Of a stretch of 64,000 nt of DNA, positions 17,360 to 33,875 are shown in pieces (positions within the stretch are counted from its first letter, which is position 1; every line of letters begins with the position of its first letter). The notes under the pieces were generated by a model that saw nothing but the letters and a program-made list of their open reading frames with translations, was not told the origin of the DNA and made no database searches. A program made the position numbers and the translations under genes. The stretch is from contig CAWBQK010000017.1 in the NCBI GenBank assembly GCA_963791045.1, forward strand, positions 64,001 to 128,000. Direction: 5' to 3'. The DNA is from Candidatus Latescibacterota bacterium. Lineage in GTDB: Bacteria > Krumholzibacteriota > Krumholzibacteriia > WVZY01.

Positions 17360-19086
17360 ATGTTGAAGTTACGTTTGGTCTTGCTGGTGGCGCTGTTGGC
17401 GCTGCCGCTGATTGGCGGCTGCTCCAGTGACGACGGCGATTCTCCGATGGATCAGGGGAGTTTTGTCGTCGGCTCGTCCGCGGCGCCCGTGAATATTGGT
17501 CCCAGTGACATCGTGTTTTGTGTCGATGTCTCGGACACCGTGTCCGCCGATCAGCTGAAGTCGATCGTCGACGCGCTCGGCGCCTGCCTTGCCGATCCTG
17601 ACTTGATCCCTCAGGACGGGACGATATTGATCGGCGCGTATGTGTACGGTGATACGGTCGCACAGCTTGTCGAACCGGGCACCGCCGTCGACGCGACGAG
17701 TTTGAAGGATGTTATTGGGCCGGCTTTCCAGGGGCTGCTCACCGACCGCATTGTTGGTGGAGGCGGAATCGACCTGGCCGGCGCGATGGGAATGGCGCGT
17801 ACCGCACTTGGTGCTGCGACGAACCTGGATCGCCATGTGTTGCTCATGGGCAGTGGCGAGGCCGACGATGAAGCAGGTGCCGAGAATGAATGTACCGAAC
17901 TTAAGAACATCGGCGTGATGGTGTCGGCAATCGGCACGGTTCCGGCAAGTGCCGGAGTCTTTCAATCATGTGCCGTTAATACCGGCGGCTTTCTTGGTTA
18001 CGGAGAGGGAAGCCTGAACGAGGTGTGCGCCGTGGCATTTGCCTACATGCTCCAGGTGGACATCGATCTCGAACCGGAAACAGCCGAATTAAAACGCGGC
18101 GAAATGCACGAAGTCATGGCGATGGTGTTTCGTGCTGGCGACGCTGAAAACTATCCCGAAGCCGGCAGCGACGTTACCTTTATGATCGTCGATGGTCCCA
18201 ACATGGGCGACTCGACCGCAACCGTGGTGACGGATACCACCGGTTTGGCGAAGTGGTCGTACACGGGCGACAGTGGGCCGGGAATCGATTATATCGTTGC
18301 GGAGACTATTCATCCCGGTACGGGAAACATGTTAACGGATACGGTCATGGTCAACTGGCTCAATGAGCCGCCGACCTGCGATGCAGGCGGACCTTATGAA
18401 GTTGTTGTCGACAGCGACAGTGCGTACGTGATGCTCGACGCGACGGCCTCGTCCGATCTCGACGGTGATTCGTTGACATTTCATTGGGCCGTGGATTGTT
18501 CGGACGGTGCGTACTTCGACGATGAGACCGCTGCGATGCCGGTTCTTATGCTCACCGGTGATTGTCTCTGTGTGGATTCGTTGACGGTAACGAGCTGACG
18601 GTCAGTGACGGGTTCGACGAGACGATGTGCGAAGCCGTTGTGAGTATTAATGACATGCGTCCTCCGGTGGTCACGCTTCGGGATGAGCCAATCCGTATGT
18701 GGCCGCCCAATCACAAGTATCACACGATCACGCCCGAGATGTTTGTCGAATCGATCGAGGACGCTTGCGGCCGCCCGCTCGAAATCGACGCATCGGTCAG
18801 GATCATGATCGTCTATAGCGACGAGCCGGAAGATGGTGCGGGCGACGGCAAGACCGTCAATGACATCATTGTCGAGTGTCCCAATGACGTTCAGCTACGC
18901 GCCGAGCGCATGGGTGGAATGATGGGTCGTGTGTATACCATCACCTACTATGCGACGGGAGAAAACGGCGCGAGTGCGGTTTTCGAAGGGGAAGTTGTTG
19001 TCCCACATGATATGTCCGGGCGCGACGTGATGCCCAATCCGTTCGGCGGATACTCGGTCACGCCGGACTGCGGCGACGCGGACTGA
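17360..19086 (+). CDS. vWA / Ig-like / PKD-like lipoprotein with a C-terminal WPPNHK...RAER...VPHD domain (one frameshift near 18590)
   Basis: Lipobox IGG-CSSDDG, MIDAS-like DVSDT, Ig-like and PKD-like (NEPPTCDAGGPY...SSDLDGDSLTFHW) segments. ORFs 17360-18598 and 18562-19086 join as ...LTVELTVSDG. Confidence 0.75.
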
Positions 19087-19147: not shown

Positions 19148-19180
19148 AAAAAGACCCCGGGGCGTTACGCCCCGGGGTCT
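19148..19180 (-). terminator. Intrinsic terminator of the cytochrome-rhodanese operon
   Basis: 13-bp stem AGACCCCGGGGCG/CGCCCCGGGGTCT with a T-tract on the minus strand. Confidence 0.85.
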
Positions 19181-19216: not shown

Positions 19217-21102
19217 CTACTGCATCGCGTAGACCGGGGTCGCCACGAGCGGGAAGTCGTTTTTCTGCGCGTCGGTCCACTTGTGGGCCGTCAAGTCGGT
19301 ATGGAACAGGTTGTTCGATCCGAACTTGAGACTGTAGGCCTCGTAGCCCAGCATGTTCAGGTACGCGGTGATCTGCGACGAATGCTGACCGGTCCAGCAG
19401 TAGACCACGATCGGCATGTCGGTCGGCAGGTTGGCGAGCATCTCACCCATGCCGAGACTCGCGTACGGGGTGAACTGGAAGGCGCCGGGGATGTGCCCGG
19501 GAACGCCGCTCGTGCCCGTGCCCAAGTAGTCGGCCTCACCGAAGTAGTTAATGACGAAGTAGTCATTCAGGTTGTCCTGGATGTCCGTGTACGAAATTCC
19601 CTTGAAGCCCGCGGCCAGCATGGCGTCGACGCGATCCTCCACGACCGTCGCCCGTTTTCGCCGGCGAGCGTCGGATACTGATGCCAGGCCAGGTTGCCGT
19701 TCTGGTTGGCCGTCTCGGCCACGTGAGATTGTCAGCCACGTTGTTAGTCCCAGGAACCAGCGAGGGTTGAGTTCCACGCGGACATGCCGAAGTTGAGCGA
19801 CTTGACATCTTCGTAGCCCATGAGCTCCAGGGCGATCTTGGCGTGGCCGGCAGCACTGGCCGGAGTAGCAGGCGATGACGATAGGCATGTCGTCGGGGAT
19901 CGTGCCGGTGCCGAGATCGTTAACGATCGTTGTAAGGGTGGAGTGATAGGCGCCGGCGATGTGGCCGGCGTCGTAGTCTGCGATTGCGCGAATGTCGATG
20001 ACCGTATAGTTGGCCAGGTTGTCGTGCAGGGCCGTGGCGGAGAGTACGCCGGGGCAGTCGGCCGTGTCGTTGATGTACGCAGCGCCTGCTGCGGCCATCG
20101 CTTCAAAAGCGGTGGTGCCACGGGGACCGGTTTCGAGCTCGAAGTCGTGCTGCGCATCGTCGGTCCACTTGTGGGCCGTCAGATCGGCATGGAACAGGTT
20201 GTTCGAACCAAACGAGAGGCTGTAGGCCTCGTAGCCGAGCATGTTCAGGTAGGCGGTGACCTGCGACGAGTGCTGGCCCGTCCAGCAGTAGACGATGACG
20301 GGCATGTCCGTCGGAATGTTCTTGAGCATCTGGTCATCGGCCAGGCTTGCGTAAGGCGTGAACTGGAAGCGCCGGGGATGTGACCCGGAACGCCGCTTCC
20401 GCCCGTGCCTTCGTAGTCGGCCTGGCCGAAGTAGTTGATGATGAAGTACTCAGACGAGGTTGTCTTTGATGGAATCGTAGGATTTGCCTTTGAAACCGGC
20501 GGCGAGCATCGCCGAAACCTGGGTGGCAACGATTGTGTTCGCGTCACCGGAAAGGGTCGGAAAGGCGTGATCCGTGAGATCACCGTTGTTGTTGGTGGTC
20601 TCGACGACAAGTAGTTTGTCATCGACATTGTTGTCCCAAGAGCCCGACAGTGATGAATTCCAAGAAGACATACCGAAGAGAAGCGAATACGTATCCTCGT
20701 AACCCATGAGTTCAAGGGCGATCTTTGCGTGACCGGCCGACTGTCCCGAGTAGCACGCGATGACGAACGGTTTGTTCGTCGGGATGGTCGTTCCGACATC
20801 CGTCAAAAGGGTCGCCAGTGTCGAATGATACGCGCCTGCAATATGTCCGTCCAGGTAGGCGCCTTCGGCGCGAATATCGATGACGGTGTAATCTTCGAGA
20901 TGGTCAAAGACGTCCTGCGCGTTGACCACGCCGGGACAGTCCGCGCTGTCATTAATGTAGGCCGAGCCGGCGTCGACCATTACTTCAAACGCCGTTCCCG
21001 TGGTGGGTGGTGTGGTCGTGCCGTTATCATCGTCATCCGAACAGCCGATAAAGGCCACCATCGCGATGGCCAACATGGCCACCAACATCCAGTGTTTCTC
21101 AT
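19217..21102 (-). CDS. Four-domain rhodanese (sulfurtransferase) lipoprotein, split by several frameshifts
   Basis: Reconstructed from ORFs 20450-21088, 20245-20799, 19744-20157, 19563-19856 and 19217-20329. Lipobox FIG-CSDDDD; active-site loops CYSGQS, CWTGQH, CYSGQ and CWTGQH; GHIAGA/GHIPGA motifs; ATG at 21102 after a GAAGGAG RBS. Confidence 0.85.
19240..21000 (-). repeat. Internal tandem duplication (about 0.89 kb unit) within the rhodanese gene
   Basis: For example 19273-19440 and 20161-20330 are visibly near-identical at DNA level. Both halves encode TAFExM..AGxAYINDxADCPGV...CYSGQ...CWTGQHSSQ...LTAHKWTD. Confidence 0.85.
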
Positions 21103-21212
21103 TCTATCTGCTCCTTCGCTATGGGCCGTTTGGCCCGGTTGTGGGGCGGTGAGCATCGCCCTCGTGACTTCTGAGGCCCGGCGGCGATCTTCGCCGCCGG
21201 GCATTCAAAGAA

Positions 21213-22614
21213 CTATCTTGCTGCGGGGAAATCCTCCTCGATTACCACACCGATGTTGGCATCATAATCCGGCAGTTTGGTCATTCCGTCCTCTTCATAG
21301 AGATCGGACTCTCTGAGGAGGAAGCCGTCCGGACCACTCTGGCGTGTAGTGGCACGCGTCAAAACACGCGGCGTCTCCGACAGTGGTCTGCGGTGTCCAA
21401 CGGAGGATGTTGTGCGGGGAGGCATAAAGCCAGGTCGGTTTGTCGAGGTAACCCGGCAGTGACAGTCCCCAACCGGAGTATGTATCCGGGTCGATCGGCA
21501 CGTGGCGTACGATCGAATAGTCATACTCGGCACGGTAGGGGCTGGCATTTTTCCCGATCTTCAACTGCACGACACTCGGATCGATTTCATAATCGGGCGT
21601 GTCGAAACCGTGACAGTTTGTGCAATTCTTGTAAGGCTGCGAATGACAGACTTGACACTGGAGCTTGGGACCGGAGCCGGTCACGTGGGCCTGATGGTAC
21701 GTGTTCCCCCCGGTTGTTCCGTGGCAGTCCTCGCAACGGGGCATCGTTTTGACCTCGTAGCGGTGGTTGTAATGATCGCCATCGGAGAGACCATCGCCGT
21801 GGATCTCCTCTTTGGTGTGACAGAACTCGCATTTGTAGCCGCGGGAGCGGTGAACGTCAGGCTGGTTGCCTTCGATTTCACCCTTGTAGTCCGTGCCGAT
21901 GCGGCTGCCGTGGCATGCCGTGCATTGTTCGTTCATGTCGGGTGATTGCGGAAACGGTGCGAGTAGTAGGACCCAATCTTCGGGAATCCGCCGCCCACGC
22001 TGTTCGGCCGGCTGATGTGGCACTGTCCACATGTCGTGTGACAGCCGCCGCATCTGCCGTTGTACTGTTCTTCAATTCCCGATCCATCGAAGGCCATACG
22101 CGCGCGAATTTCGATGGCGTTTTTTTAGCCCCACAGGTTCGAATGAAGACTGTTGGCGGTTGCTCGGGCTTCCCTGGTAGGCTGACAGGCCATCTCGCAT
22201 GCACCGAAGGCGCTCGGGTCAGGGACCATGTCGACATGCGCCTCTTCCATCGTGGTGAAGGTGCTGTCGGCCTGGCCGTTGTGACAGCTCTGACATGGCC
22301 CTCTTCCCGTGAACGCTGCTGAGGAAGATGTCACCGTTGTTTCCGGTGATGATGACTTTTTCCCAAGCTTCCAGCTCGGGTACGTCGCCGCCTCAGCCAT
22401 CGTCCATGGCGACAAGCCTGATCGGGGGCATCGATGAACTCCCAAGTGACGCCTTCAAGCTAGACTCACTCGAGTGACACCCCAAACAGGTCGCCGTGGA
22501 GGCGATCGGTGGATCAACCGGCGGGTTGGTCACCGAATCATCGTCGTCTGAGCATCCCCAGAACGCGATCGCCAAAAGAAGAGATAATGCGCTGAGAGCA
22601 AAAAGCTTCTTCAT
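21213..22614 (-). CDS. Multiheme (about 10-11 heme) c-type cytochrome lipoprotein, probable selenoprotein; additional indels present
   Basis: Lipobox FWG-CSDDDD. Heme motifs CLGCH, CQSCH, CGGCH, CGQCH, CTACH, CEFCH, CEDCH, CQVCH, CTNCH and CFDACH, plus a possibly damaged CEMAC(Q). The in-frame TGA at 22395-22393 is followed by coherent coding (GGDVPELEAWEKV). Reconstructed from ORFs 22393-22614, 22125-22445, 21295-22053 and 21213-21548. Confidence 0.85.
22362..22395 (-). promoter_or_regulatory. UGA codon plus candidate bacterial SECIS hairpin
   Basis: mRNA reads UGA-GGCGGCGACGUA-CCCGAGCU-GGA-AGCUUGGG: an 8-bp stem (one G-U pair) starting 12 nt after UGA, with a G-initiated apical loop. Confidence 0.7.
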
Positions 22615-23258
22615 GCACTCCTCCCTGGTTGCTGCCGACCGTTTCCGGGTGTCAGGTCAAGTCTGAGACCCTTCGCGAAGATCGGCACGTTGTTACAAAT
22701 CACATCGCCTGGATTAAACTCAAAATCTGAAATCTTACTCCATGTATCTACGGATAAGGCGCAGTCCATGACCATCCCAATAAAACAACGGCTGGTGATA
22801 AAAGGGTCGACTTCGATTACCTCTTGGGTCTCGATACGTCGTTCGAGTTCCCGTTGGAGATATGTGATGTAGGGAAGGCGGACTTCCCTGAAAAGAACAG
22901 CCGCGACTGGCCCACTTTCCAAAGAATTCACGTGCATGAGCCGCAATAGCTCCGGGTCGGTTTCGATGAAACCGAGAATGTGTTCGGCAACCGTCGTAAG
23001 AACATCTTCTAATTCGCCGCAGTCGCTGCATTTCTCAAGAAAGTCCGCGATGTCGTGCTGATCGGCCTTCCGGTGGATGACGGCCTCGTACAATGTGATC
23101 TTGCTGGGGAAGTGTCTGTAGATGGCCGCTTCGGTGATAGCGCACGCCTTCGCGATCGAACGGAGCGATGTTCCCGTGTACCCACTCTGGGCAAAGAGAC
23201 GCGTGGATTCGTGAAGAATCTGTTCGCGACGGTTTTTCGGTTTAGAAGCTGTGGCCAC
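22611..23258 (-). CDS. TetR/AcrR family transcriptional regulator
   Basis: FAQSGYTGTSLRSIAKACAITEAAIYRHFPSK HTH. Its stop overlaps the cytochrome ATG (ATGA). Confidence 0.93.
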   Translation of the reverse strand: MATASKPKNRREQILHESTRLFAQSGYTGTSLRSIAKACAITEAAIYRHFPSKITLYEAVIHRKADQHDIADFLEKCSDCGELEDVLTTVAEHILGFIETDPELLRLMHVNSLESGPVAAVLFREVRLPYITYLQRELERRIETQEVIEVDPFITSRCFIGMVMDCALSVDTWSKISDFEFNPGDVICNNVPIFAKGLRLDLTPGNGRQQPGRSA

Positions 23259-23277
23259 GTTGCACGTCCGAAAAAAA

Positions 23278-23297
23278 GTTAGTAAGCGATAACAAAC
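23278..23297. promoter_or_regulatory. Possible TetR operator
   Basis: Imperfect palindrome GTTAGTAAGC/GATAACAAAC (7 of 10 pairs) 20 nt upstream of tetR. Confidence 0.3.
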
Positions 23298-23418
23298 ATA
23301 CGCAAGATATCAGCTTGTGAAACATGGCGCAAGCACTTTATTCTATTGCTATTAAATCATTTATGGATTAGGATTGCCTATTAGTTCAGCTGTCTGTCAA
23401 GACAACTCAACCGGATCT

Positions 23419-23446
23419 TTGCCAGCGGGCGAAGGCACTGTATAAT
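23419..23446 (+). promoter_or_regulatory. Sigma70 promoter
   Basis: TTGCCA-16 nt-TATAAT upstream of the dehydrogenase gene. Confidence 0.6.
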
Positions 23447-23513
23447 GTGGTTCATTTTTGTGGGTGGTTGTGATGGTTGTTCGGAACTTGTATTGAACCA
23501 AAAGAGGTCTGAT

Positions 23514-30426: not shown

Positions 30427-32419
30427 ATGAGGTTCGAGTTTAAGCCATTTGGTGAGATGACGCCGGAGGACTACGACAAGATAGGCCTCAAGGCCGGTCT
30501 GGAAATCCACCAGCAACTCCTCACTGAGAAAAAGCTGTTTTGCCGTTGTCCGGCCGGCCACTACAGCAACGAGTACGACGCCGAGATACTCCGTCACATG
30601 CGCCCCACGCTATCGGAACTGGGCGAGTACGACGGGACGGCGCTCATGGAATTCAAGACAAAAAAAGAAATCATCTACCGAATCAAAAGCGAGACCGTTT
30701 GTACATACGAGATGGATGATACGCCCCCGTTTATGATCAACGAGCAGGCGCTTGATATCGCTGTTGAAGTCGCGCTCCTTCTCAATTTGAATTTGGTAAA
30801 TGAACTCCATATTGCCCGCAAACAATATCTCGACGGGAGCATCCCGACCGGTTTCCAGCGCACAACCATCCTTGGCGTCGATGGATGGATTCCGTACAAA
30901 GACAGAAAAATCGGGATCACTCAACTGGGTTTGAAGAGGACGCGTGCAGGGAAGTGTCTGATATCGGTCATGAGCGGATTTACCTGACGGATCGGCTCGG
31001 AATGCCGTTGATCGAACCGGTAACACAACCGGATATGCGAACACCCCAGGAAGTGGCGGAAGTCGGCGAAGATGTTGCGCAAACTCGTGAGGGCGACGGG
31101 CAAGGTTCGGACCGGTCATGGCGCCGGCCGGGAAGATGTCAATGTGAGATATGGAGGGTGGCCGAAGAGTCGAGATCAAGGGCGTCCCGAGCCTCGTCCG
31201 CGTGCCGTTCTTGATATACAACGAGGCGATGCGGCAGTGGAATCTTTTGAGGATCCGCGACATCCTTGCCGACCGCGGGATCACGACGGAGACATTTTCC
31301 TCCGCGAGTGAAAACGTTACGCGGGCGTTGTCCGGTGTTCAGTACGCGCCGATTGAACTGGCGCTGGAACGCGGCGAGGAAGCTTTTTGTGTCAAGCTCG
31401 AAGGGTACGCCGGAATACTGAACGAGAAGACGCAGACCGACACAACGTTCGCCAAAGAAATTTCGGACAGAATCCGGGTCATCGCCTGTTTGACGAGTTT
31501 GCCGAATATGGCCCATTCGGGTTTGGCGTCCGAAACGCTGGCGCCACCGCGGCCTGGAAAAAAATCCGGCAAAAGGTTCGTGCAACGGAACGCGATGCGG
31601 TCGTTCTGGTGTGGGGCCATCGGGTCGATGCCGAGTGCGCCTGTTTGGAGATCGTGTCGAGGGCGAAAGAGGCTCTCGAAGGTGTCCCAAGCGAGACCCG
31701 GCAAGCTCTCACCGATGGCACCAACGGGTTCGAACGGATTCTCCCCGGTCCGGACGGATGTATCCGGATACGGATCTCCCCCCGATGGCGCTCAGCAGTG
31801 AGCGCGTGGAAAAAGCGAGGGCATGCATGCCCAAACCACCGTGGGAGAGGGGTGTCAAAGTTACGAGTCGCGATTGGGCTTCCCGACGACATGATGGAAA
31901 CGTTGACGTGTCGCCGAGGGCCGTTTGTTCGATCGATTGACGAACGGACCTTGATGTGGCACGCCGGTTCTACCGCGGCCATGTTTAGCCAACACGCCAA
32001 GTCGCTCGAGCGGCAGGGCCTGAATCTTGGCCGGCTCTCCGATGAAGTGATATTCGGTGTATTCGAAGCGTACACCGAGGGCAGAATTTCGCGCGAGGGG
32101 ATTCTCCATGTCGTCCGGCATCTTCTCGAAGGTCGGAGGGGATGGTCGCCGGAAAGCAATCCATCGCGTATCGGGCAATGCCGAAGCGCTGATTCAAGGC
32201 CGCCATTTGACGACCTCGAGATTGACTGCCGATGTCGCAGGATGAGGCGAGACCGATTCGTGATCGAATATCGTCGAGCGGAGCGATCCCCGGTGGTCTC
32301 GATAACCGATGTAATAAGAGACACAAATATCTGATGGGGTTTTCATGGAGCAGTTCCTGGGCCGAATCGATGGCAAGATGGTTTCAGGGATGCTCGACGA
32401 GATTCTCGGTGCCGCATAG
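30427..32419 (+). CDS. gatE: Glu-tRNA(Gln) amidotransferase subunit E (archaeal type), multiple frameshifts
   Basis: GLKAGLEIHQQL..KKLFCRCP, RPTLSELGEYD, MDDTPP, RKQYLDGSIPTGFQRT, EEDACR, DRLGMPLIE, RVEIKGV, GVPSETR and RMYPDTDLPP spread over successive frames. The 3' end is approximate. Confidence 0.88.
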
Positions 32420-32486
32420 CGGTGTACAGGAAGCCACCGGGAAAGAAGACAAACACAGTGATCGAGGACAAATCGAACTTAACGAA

Positions 32487-33875
32487 ATGAACAAAACAAC
32501 ACACAAAGGATACAGTGGAAGGGGGCTGGCCGTGTTGAAAGAACACGGCGTAACGGTGTGGAGCGACGTGAAGGTACCGGGAAGAGCGGGCGAATTCCGC
32601 GGAATCATCCTGCCCAGATCTGAAACAGCGGATGCAAACCACATCGTTTTGAAGCTCAACAACGGCTACAATATCGGTCTTGATGCGGGTCCATCTATCG
32701 ATGGAAGAGAAAGGGAGACGGGAGGCGCACTACAAAATTCCTGAGAAAGAATTTCCCTTCGATCCCGGCAAAACCCAACGTGAAACTATTCGGGACGGGC
32801 GGTACGATCGCCAGCCGACTCGACTATCGGACGGGCGCGGTGATCCCCGCGTTTTCTCCGGGTGAATTGTATGGATCCGTTCCCGAACTTGCCGACATCT
32901 GCAATCTCGATACCGAAAAACTTTATGGCGTATTCAGTGAGAATATGGGACCCGGAGCAGTACATAGCGACGGCCAAGCGAATCGGCGAGGAAATCGAAA
33001 AAGGAACGGCCGGTATCGTGATCGGGCACGGCACCGATACGATGCACCACACGGCTGCAATATTGAGTTTTATGGTCCAGGACTCGCCGGTACCAATCGT
33101 GATGGTTGGGTCGCAGCGGTCGTCCGACCGTCCGTCGTCCGACGCGGCGATCAATTTGATCAACTCGGTAAAAGCGGCGGCCGAAGGCGATATTGCCGAG
33201 GTCATGGTCTGCATGTTTGGCCCGACATCCGATCAATACGGACTTCTTCACCGTGGAACCCGAGTGCGAAAAATGCATTCGAGCTACAGATCCACATTCA
33301 GAACCATCGGCGACATCCCGCTCGCGATGATCAGCCAGAAAAAGGGATTGATTCCTCTGAGGGATGACGTCAAGCGGCGCCGGTCGGACCGGAATGTGAA
33401 GATCAACACCGCGTTCGAGGAAAAAGTGACGATCTTGTACTACTATCCCAATATGCTGCCCGATATCGTTGACGCGTGTGTCGATAATGACTACAAGGGA
33501 ATCGTGATTGCGGGCACCGGACTGGGACATGTTAACAAACCGCTGTATCCGGCGCTCGAGCGGGCCGTCAAAAAAGGCGTACATATATACATGACCGTGC
33601 AGACGCTGTGGGGATACGTTCAGATGTATGTTTACGAAACCGGCCGTGAAATTATGCAACTCGGGGTCGTGCCCGGGTGCAATTTGTTGCCGGAAGTCGC
33701 GTACATGAAGCTCTGTTGGGCGCTCGGCCAGTCGGATGATCGTGATGAGGTTGCCGACATCATGCTGACGCCGGTGAACGGTGAGATCACCGAACGAGAG
33801 CCGTATAACGGGTATCTGATTTATCAGGGCGCGATCCCGGAAGTGCAGGAGTTTCTCAAGACTGTGAAACGATGA
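32487..33875 (+). CDS. gatD: Glu-tRNA(Gln) amidotransferase subunit D (asparaginase-like glutaminase), 2-3 frameshifts
   Basis: GatD-specific N-terminal domain (IVLKLNNGYNIG), TGGTIASRLDYRTGAV, HGTDTM, GSQRSSDRPSSD, RVRKMHSSYR, GTGLGHV and LPEVAYMKLCWALGQ. Confidence 0.92.

Follow-up and report, generated by a model that had tools for sequence, protein, structure and literature searches.

The window considered here is a stretch of 64,000 nucleotides from Candidatus Latescibacterota bacterium (GCA_963791045.1, contig CAWBQK010000017.1, positions 64,001–128,000). Its minus strand carries three co-oriented genes, coding for a TetR regulator, a multiheme c-type cytochrome and a rhodanese. As a preliminary description of this DNA had stated, the first two genes are joined by an overlap between the TGA stop codon of tetR and the ATG of the cytochrome gene (ATGA at 22611–22614, with the ATG at 22614), and the strong terminator it had placed at the end of the operon is present as a G+C-rich hairpin followed by a T-run. 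A consensus scan for terminators returned only a weaker site adjoining this hairpin. The cytochrome frame opens with a lipoprotein signal that is followed by the first CxxCH heme motif. By inspection, both downstream proteins contain a lipobox (...AFWGC and ...AFIGC), the cysteine of which is invariant in the alignment of each family. There is good support for identifying the system as an 11-heme lipoprotein cytochrome that contains selenocysteine (Sec) and is paired with a dedicated rhodanese, both controlled by TetR. The coordinates of all features are collected in Table 1.

An intact version of the trio is found in a genome of the same order (G016, equivalent to loci L003/L013), where TetR is followed by a cytochrome of 475 amino acids with one in-frame TGA and a rhodanese of 321 amino acids. 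The ortholog cytochromes are about 475 amino acids in length with 11 heme motifs and Sec at residue 80. An alignment of 54 full-length cytochrome sequences (A2) revealed eleven invariant heme motifs, ten of the form CxxCH and one of the form CxxxCH, the first cysteine of the latter being only nearly invariant. Outside of the motifs, ten histidines are fully or almost fully invariant. Conservation of the Sec column is 90% or higher, and there is no other conserved cysteine. Since eleven heme motifs are matched by ten conserved non-motif histidines, one heme is left without a conserved distal histidine, and this heme may be considered a candidate active site.

Table 1. Coordinates of features of the operon and of related features in the same genome.
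Feature	Position	Strand	Basis
tetR, 215 amino acids, intact	22611–23258	-	Open reading frame; Pfam TetR_N PF00440, 53.5 bits
Lipoprotein multiheme cytochrome c gene, split over two of three frames	21213–22614	-	Three-frame reading, tblastn, frameshift-aware ortholog alignment
Four-domain rhodanese lipoprotein gene, two tandem two-domain units	19217–21088	-	Pfam Rhodanese on open pieces; frameshift-aware alignment to L047 ortholog
Intrinsic terminator: 13-bp G+C-rich stem, loop TAA, T-run	19148–19180	-	Read from sequence
In-frame TGA read as Sec (very probable), motif G-D/E-G-U-G-G	22393–22395	-	Codon identity; ortholog alignment
SECIS-like hairpin: 8-bp stem, loop GGA, start 15 nt past the TGA	22362–22380	-	Folding
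Cytochrome +1 frameshift	22296 (approximate)	-	Frameshift-aware alignment
Cytochrome -1 frameshift	21946–21947 (approximate)	-	Frameshift-aware alignment
Cytochrome +1 frameshift	21336 (approximate)	-	Frameshift-aware alignment
TAA where the G016 ortholog has Glu (LWGEK), beside a run of A	22125–22127	-	Ortholog alignment
Third heme motif spoiled, CEMACQ for invariant CxxCH	22174–22191	-	A2 columns C145, C148 and H149 invariant
Rhodanese, six frameshifts	near 20455, 20369, 19855, 19746, 19720, 19655	-	Alignment to L047 ortholog
Fragmented rpoB and rpoC	own genome contig C5, 40912–48769		Family-model matches

Selenocysteine in the cytochrome

The preliminary description had read the in-frame TGA of the cytochrome gene as Sec, and comparative data bear this out. 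Of 80 loci drawn from several phyla, 76 have a TGA at this position: 46 of the 80 satisfy a strict pattern, and 30 of the remaining 34 also show the Sec residue. It is missing from L037, which has Trp, from L049, which has Gln, and from L072 and L073. The hairpin just past the codon, which resembles a selenocysteine insertion sequence (SECIS), is kept in 64 distinct sequences with 91.2% of cells paired as compared to 23–53% when the partner column is slid. One of its pairs (20–30) is compensatory, being C-G in 28 sequences and A-U in 27, and RNAalifold kept 6 of the 8 pairs. In some distant sequences, the hairpin folds one codon earlier. A cysteine occupies the Sec column, in the same glycine-rich context, in 13 of the 33 full-length representatives fetched from a library clustered at 50% identity. 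The genome itself encodes tRNA-Sec along with SelB (373.7 bits), SelD and SelA, the three proteins all scoring above their cut-offs. Because the TGA is conserved, the hairpin covaries, cysteine forms exist and the Sec machinery is complete, the cytochrome is very probably a selenoprotein.

It is most improbable that the codon is instead a true or leaky stop. A tryptophan at this position in 3 of the 33 full-length representatives, as in L037, would agree with such a reading, as would the many database entries, the majority, that begin just past the TGA. However, the part of the protein encoded 3' of the TGA contains ten heme motifs and no signal peptide of its own, and a stop codon would leave the covariation of the hairpin, the cysteine forms and the complete machinery unaccounted for. 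An alternative genetic code in which TGA is a sense codon was also considered and rejected, since TGA ends tetR in the window as well as 18 of 51 orthologous cytochrome genes.

The SelD match of this genome (373 bits; contig C6, 361456–362382) contains one in-frame TGA of its own and is probably itself a selenoprotein.

The rhodanese partner and the wider family

When the rhodanese gene of the window is read through its breaks, all four domains keep the C-x-x-G-x-x-[SA] active-site loop. Four-domain orthologs are 610–645 amino acids in length and make up 33 of the 61 complete partner open reading frames; 26 of these 33 present all four loops by a strict pattern. In an alignment of 47 partner sequences (A4), the lipobox cysteine and both catalytic cysteines (C115 and C269) are invariant. 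The Pfam Rhodanese model (PF00581) matches the pieces in the window and scores 92.7 bits on the ortholog, and the best NCBIfam matches of the partner are of the GlpE and PspE types, below their cut-offs.

A neighborhood check had been proposed to learn if the cytochrome, the rhodanese and TetR recur together, and they do. Of 74 assessable loci from several phyla, 68 have a rhodanese directly downstream of the cytochrome, and in two of the remaining six (L076 and L078) a rhodanese is found upstream. Fusions of the two proteins were found in 2 of 13 long representatives (P0170 and P0180). All three assessable loci without Sec (L049, L072 and L073), which are few and related cases, have no downstream rhodanese, compared to 3 of the 71 loci with Sec. 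TetR could be assessed in 73 loci, and 44 of them have a homolog upstream of the cytochrome.

The TetR protein of the window had no NCBIfam equivalog above cut-off, and the region upstream of its gene (23230–23460) contains no inverted repeat of 10 or more bases. An imperfect palindrome is present at 23395–23409 (minus strand), with 5-bp arms TGTCT/AGACA around TGAC, which is below the size registered by the repeat finder. In the clade formed by L014–L021, the gene after the four-domain rhodanese encodes another TetR homolog (for example, L014:8578–9177), so that a tetR gene stands on either side of the pair.

A further survey covered the flanks of 22 loci, most of which have no TetR. In L057, L091 and L083, a fusion of a multiheme cytochrome c to cytochrome b561 adjoins the pair and looks like a quinol oxidase. 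Downstream in L070 is a large multiheme cytochrome comparable to these, with no b561 match reported for it. In two distant genomes, a fusion of an ArsR-type helix-turn-helix domain to a rhodanese is encoded directly upstream of the pair (L041:2318–3142 and L050:4053–4823); these regulators are candidate sulfane-sulfur sensors. A sigma-54 activator with PAS domains is located in the flanks of L061, L071, L080 and L069.

The family is large. A scan of one genome per species gave at least 598 pattern matches, and at least 553 species genomes encode a relative of the cytochrome; the best 80 loci were kept for comparison. A profile search of the 50%-identity library identified 204 representatives at E ≤ 1e-30, a number that rises to 627 at E ≤ 1e-10. 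The records of the best 80 loci are mostly labelled Krumholzibacteria, and include Eisenbacteria, Phycisphaerae, Calditrichota, Gemmatimonadota, Chloroflexi and others. In public databases, the cytochrome is mostly entered as an N-terminally truncated hypothetical protein. Some of the truncated entries (from JGI; for example, P0004, P0007 and P0014) are misnamed "thiosulfate/3-mercaptopyruvate sulfurtransferase" with only cytochrome domains recorded, a name that may have been carried over from the cytochrome-rhodanese fusions.

The preliminary description had not recognized the system as one already described. A full-text search of the literature outside subscription journals, and without the supplements to the MccSep paper (see below), likewise found no description of a cytochrome-rhodanese family of this kind. 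In those passages of a 2026 review of prokaryotic selenoproteins that mention cytochromes, the only cytochrome entries are ExtKL, the GSU2204 family and the family of the octaheme tetrathionate reductase (OTR) (PMC13188914). The ortholog cytochrome did not match the models for any of these three. The family of Sec 11-heme cytochromes with a rhodanese is therefore apparently both widespread and undescribed.

Interrupted reading frames in the window copy

In the window, the cytochrome and rhodanese can be read only across nine single-base frameshifts, one TAA codon and one spoiled heme motif (Table 1). The preliminary description treated both genes as readable and made no mention of breaks, which does not hold since neither is a single open frame. 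Its other statements on the two proteins fared better: the lipoboxes and the four catalytic cysteine loops of the rhodanese are in place. The window cytochrome is left with 10 intact heme motifs, and its orthologs have 11.

The breaks are most likely assembly errors and not gene decay. In the same assembly, rpoB is found in 9 pieces and rpoC in 7, with alternating frames, internal stops and no piece reaching the model cut-off. As these genes are equally fragmented and cannot be pseudogenes, the fault is placed with the assembly. The same conclusion follows from the character of the shifts at the operon, all nine of which are of ±1 base, together with the single intact frame of the orthologs in related genomes and the low completeness of the assembly (80.9%) despite its consisting of only 21 contigs (3.66 Mb). 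It is improbable that the operon is a truly decaying pseudogene cluster in this organism. Nine frameshifts, a nonsense codon and a lost heme motif within 3.4 kb would be expected of decay, particularly when tetR and flanking genes of 788 and 726 amino acids are intact; however, the indispensable rpoB and rpoC present the same pattern, and the operon itself has suffered no larger deletions and has otherwise kept its conserved residues. The practical lesson is that the apparent decay at this locus belongs to the assembly, and with so many indel errors, caution is needed before any gene of this genome is called a pseudogene. Programmed frameshifting was also considered and was rejected because the orthologs are encoded in one frame.

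Contigs from three read sets, all of them short, were also compared to the locus. Several are 100% identical over tetR and the N-terminus of the rhodanese. Another contig, related and about 93% alike, carries a single additional base at 19652, where the rhodanese gene has a -1 shift; as a sign of an error in the window assembly, this base is suggestive only. A GatD/asparaginase-like gene at 32232–33875 (plus strand) of the window is also divided, in this case over three overlapping frames that match GatD_N, the N-terminal part of Asparaginase, and the rest of that domain with Asparaginase_C, respectively. This split is probably the result of further assembly indels.

Proposed function and comparison with known systems

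Considering the locus as a whole, the interpretation we favor, and regard as probable, is that of a TetR-controlled pair of lipoproteins in which a Sec 11-heme cytochrome and its dedicated rhodanese carry out periplasmic redox chemistry on sulfane sulfur or polysulfide, with the breaks in the window copy attributed to assembly. We infer the chemistry, with Sec as the nucleophile, by analogy, because the pairing of the two genes is conserved and MccSep of Geobacter sulfurreducens provides a precedent. In the proposed mechanism, a Sec at about residue 80, encoded by UGA and directed by the hairpin just downstream, would be the reactive group. The rhodanese would bind sulfane sulfur as a persulfide or polysulfide and present it to the cytochrome, where the selenolate would attack the S–S bond. 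The Se–S adduct would then be reduced to sulfide by electrons arriving through the heme chain. These electrons would originate from a quinol-oxidising module encoded elsewhere in the genome, of which a counterpart may adjoin the pair in some other lineages. The reaction could proceed in either direction, as a reduction or as an oxidation.

MccSep, also known as ExtKL (GSU2937–2936), together with the rhodanese ExtH, is the closest known system, and the analogy to the Geobacter ext cluster drawn in the preliminary description is an apt one. According to a 2026 report (PMC13510729), MccSep is a pentaheme Sec cytochrome that serves as a polysulfide reductase in sulfur respiration, with Sec325 in a D-G-U-P loop beside a heme-ligating Cys239. 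The same report places a rhodanese-like lipoprotein, ExtH, in the same gene cluster and reports MccSep from Desulfobacterota and Nitrospirota. As a general idea, then, a molybdenum-free heme-selenium polysulfide reductase has already been published for MccSep (PMC13510729). Judged against that report, the family in the window shares much of the parts list: an exported multiheme c-type cytochrome that is whole only when an in-frame UGA is read as Sec, a SECIS-like hairpin past the UGA, a D-G-U tripeptide at the Sec residue, a rhodanese gene in the neighborhood, and no need for a molybdenum subunit. As with MccSep, the proteins are split or truncated in databases.

Despite this similar parts list, the window family is not, from its sequences, a member of the MccSep family. 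The ExtKL model (NF040886, cut-off 250 bits) gave no match to the ortholog at E ≤ 0.01 and none at the window locus at E ≤ 1; its best scores were 33.1 bits elsewhere in the same genome and 42.4 bits in three other genomes that hold the family. The partner rhodanese scored 22.5 bits against the ExtH model (NF040901), over an N-terminal stretch only, and did not reach the cut-off of 200. The window family has 11 heme motifs in contrast to the five hemes of MccSep, and its Sec lies near the N-terminus, about 30 residues past the first heme, whereas that of MccSep is in a C-terminal immunoglobulin-like domain. There is also no conserved non-motif cysteine in the window family to match the heme-ligating C239. 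The lineages differ as well, being mainly Krumholzibacteria-labelled and other uncultured groups in place of the Desulfobacterota and Nitrospirota reported for MccSep, and the ExtI porin of the Geobacter ext cluster has no equivalent accompanying the window family. The weak NF040886 matches in the same genome fall on a cluster of multiheme cytochrome frames on contig C9 (59275–61911). One piece of this cluster has two in-frame TGA codons, which are either Sec codons or assembly errors.

It is possible, and we put it forward tentatively, that the pair represents a second class of heme-selenium chalcogen reductase, with no detectable sequence relation to MccSep, a lone Sec nucleophile without a helper cysteine, and a supply of substrate from the rhodanese, in support of a molybdenum-free sulfur respiration. 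Within such a class, Sec might perhaps act as the sixth ligand at the heme that has no conserved distal histidine. If this were true, an unrecognized form of molybdenum-free sulfur respiration would be present in Krumholzibacteria-like and other uncultured lineages.

Two further systems offer points of comparison. OTR of Shewanella oneidensis is a multiheme enzyme that acts on a sulfur compound and has a lysine-ligated active-site heme. Sud, the polysulfide-sulfur transferase, is an exported periplasmic rhodanese regarded as a carrier that delivers polysulfide sulfur to a reductase. Unlike the Sud type, the rhodanese of the window family is a four-domain lipoprotein tied genetically to a cytochrome and not to a molybdoenzyme. 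OTR has eight hemes in contrast to the eleven of the window family.

For the G016 ortholog, AlphaFold2 gave a model with a mean pLDDT of 81.7. A sequence search of the PDB with the ortholog found nothing relevant, and a Foldseek search of PDB entries up to April 2026, a range that probably leaves out MccSep (9WT8–9WTC), gave no match at E ≤ 0.001. A wider structure search produced a sole outstanding match to OTR (PDB: 1sp3, Z 8.3, root-mean-square deviation 4.3 Å over 270 residues, residues 105–475 of the model), with the next match at Z 3.1. The N-terminal heme and the Sec loop have no counterpart in the aligned range of OTR.

The main rivals to the sulfane-sulfur proposal assign a different chemistry to the same two proteins. 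The match to 1sp3 could be taken to mean that they form an OTR-like enzyme that reduces or oxidises tetrathionate or thiosulfate, in which the rhodanese would deal with thiosulfate, and it is in agreement with this that rhodaneses are classically thiosulfate sulfurtransferases and that the nearest NCBIfam models of the partner are those for GlpE and PspE, albeit below cut-off. We consider this unlikely, as a Z of 8.3 is within the range that the tool calls common, the Foldseek E value for the same structure is 0.75, and the OTR model (TIGR04315) has no match to the ortholog at E ≤ 0.01. Reduction or detoxification of selenite or tellurite, the role proposed for the Geobacter ext cluster, would place the pair outside of sulfur respiration. 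ExtH is labelled by NCBIfam as the rhodanese of a selenite/tellurite reduction operon, a TetR regulator would be in keeping with a stress response that is inducible, and MccSep is reported to turn over selenite as well, at a lower efficiency (PMC13510729). This role appears quite unlikely given the low score of the partner against the ExtH model and the lack of an ExtI-like porin, and the cytochrome c-b561 fusions found beside the pair in 3 of the 22 surveyed loci look respiratory.

Several observations weigh against the sulfane-sulfur proposal and the associated reading of the locus. No electron donor is encoded in the operon, which also contains neither a porin nor a quinol oxidase, as the preliminary description had already remarked. 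The best structural match is to OTR, at only Z 8.3, and would fit other sulfur substrates equally well. At the Sec column, 20 of the 33 full-length representatives have another residue or a gap, neither Sec nor cysteine, and the fusion protein P0180 has a tyrosine, so the link to a rhodanese does not strictly need Sec. In the window copy, the TAA and the CEMACQ sequence are substitutions or 3-nt changes, which are less typical of an indel-type assembly error, and no public sequencing run with the locus was found (none contained more than a 0.06 share of the sampled words).

Should the pair reduce sulfane sulfur, it would constitute a second heme-selenium solution to cleavage of the S–S bond and a respiratory trait for phyla without cultured members. 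The supply of selenium would then be relevant to sulfur cycling by those phyla.

The operon stands alone in the window, flanked by a gene for a lipoprotein with a VWA domain and a gene for a zinc alcohol dehydrogenase. The VWA-domain lipoprotein gene (17360–19086, plus strand) is convergent on the operon terminator and is divided into two overlapping open reading frames of 412 and 174 amino acids, which may be a single frameshifted gene.

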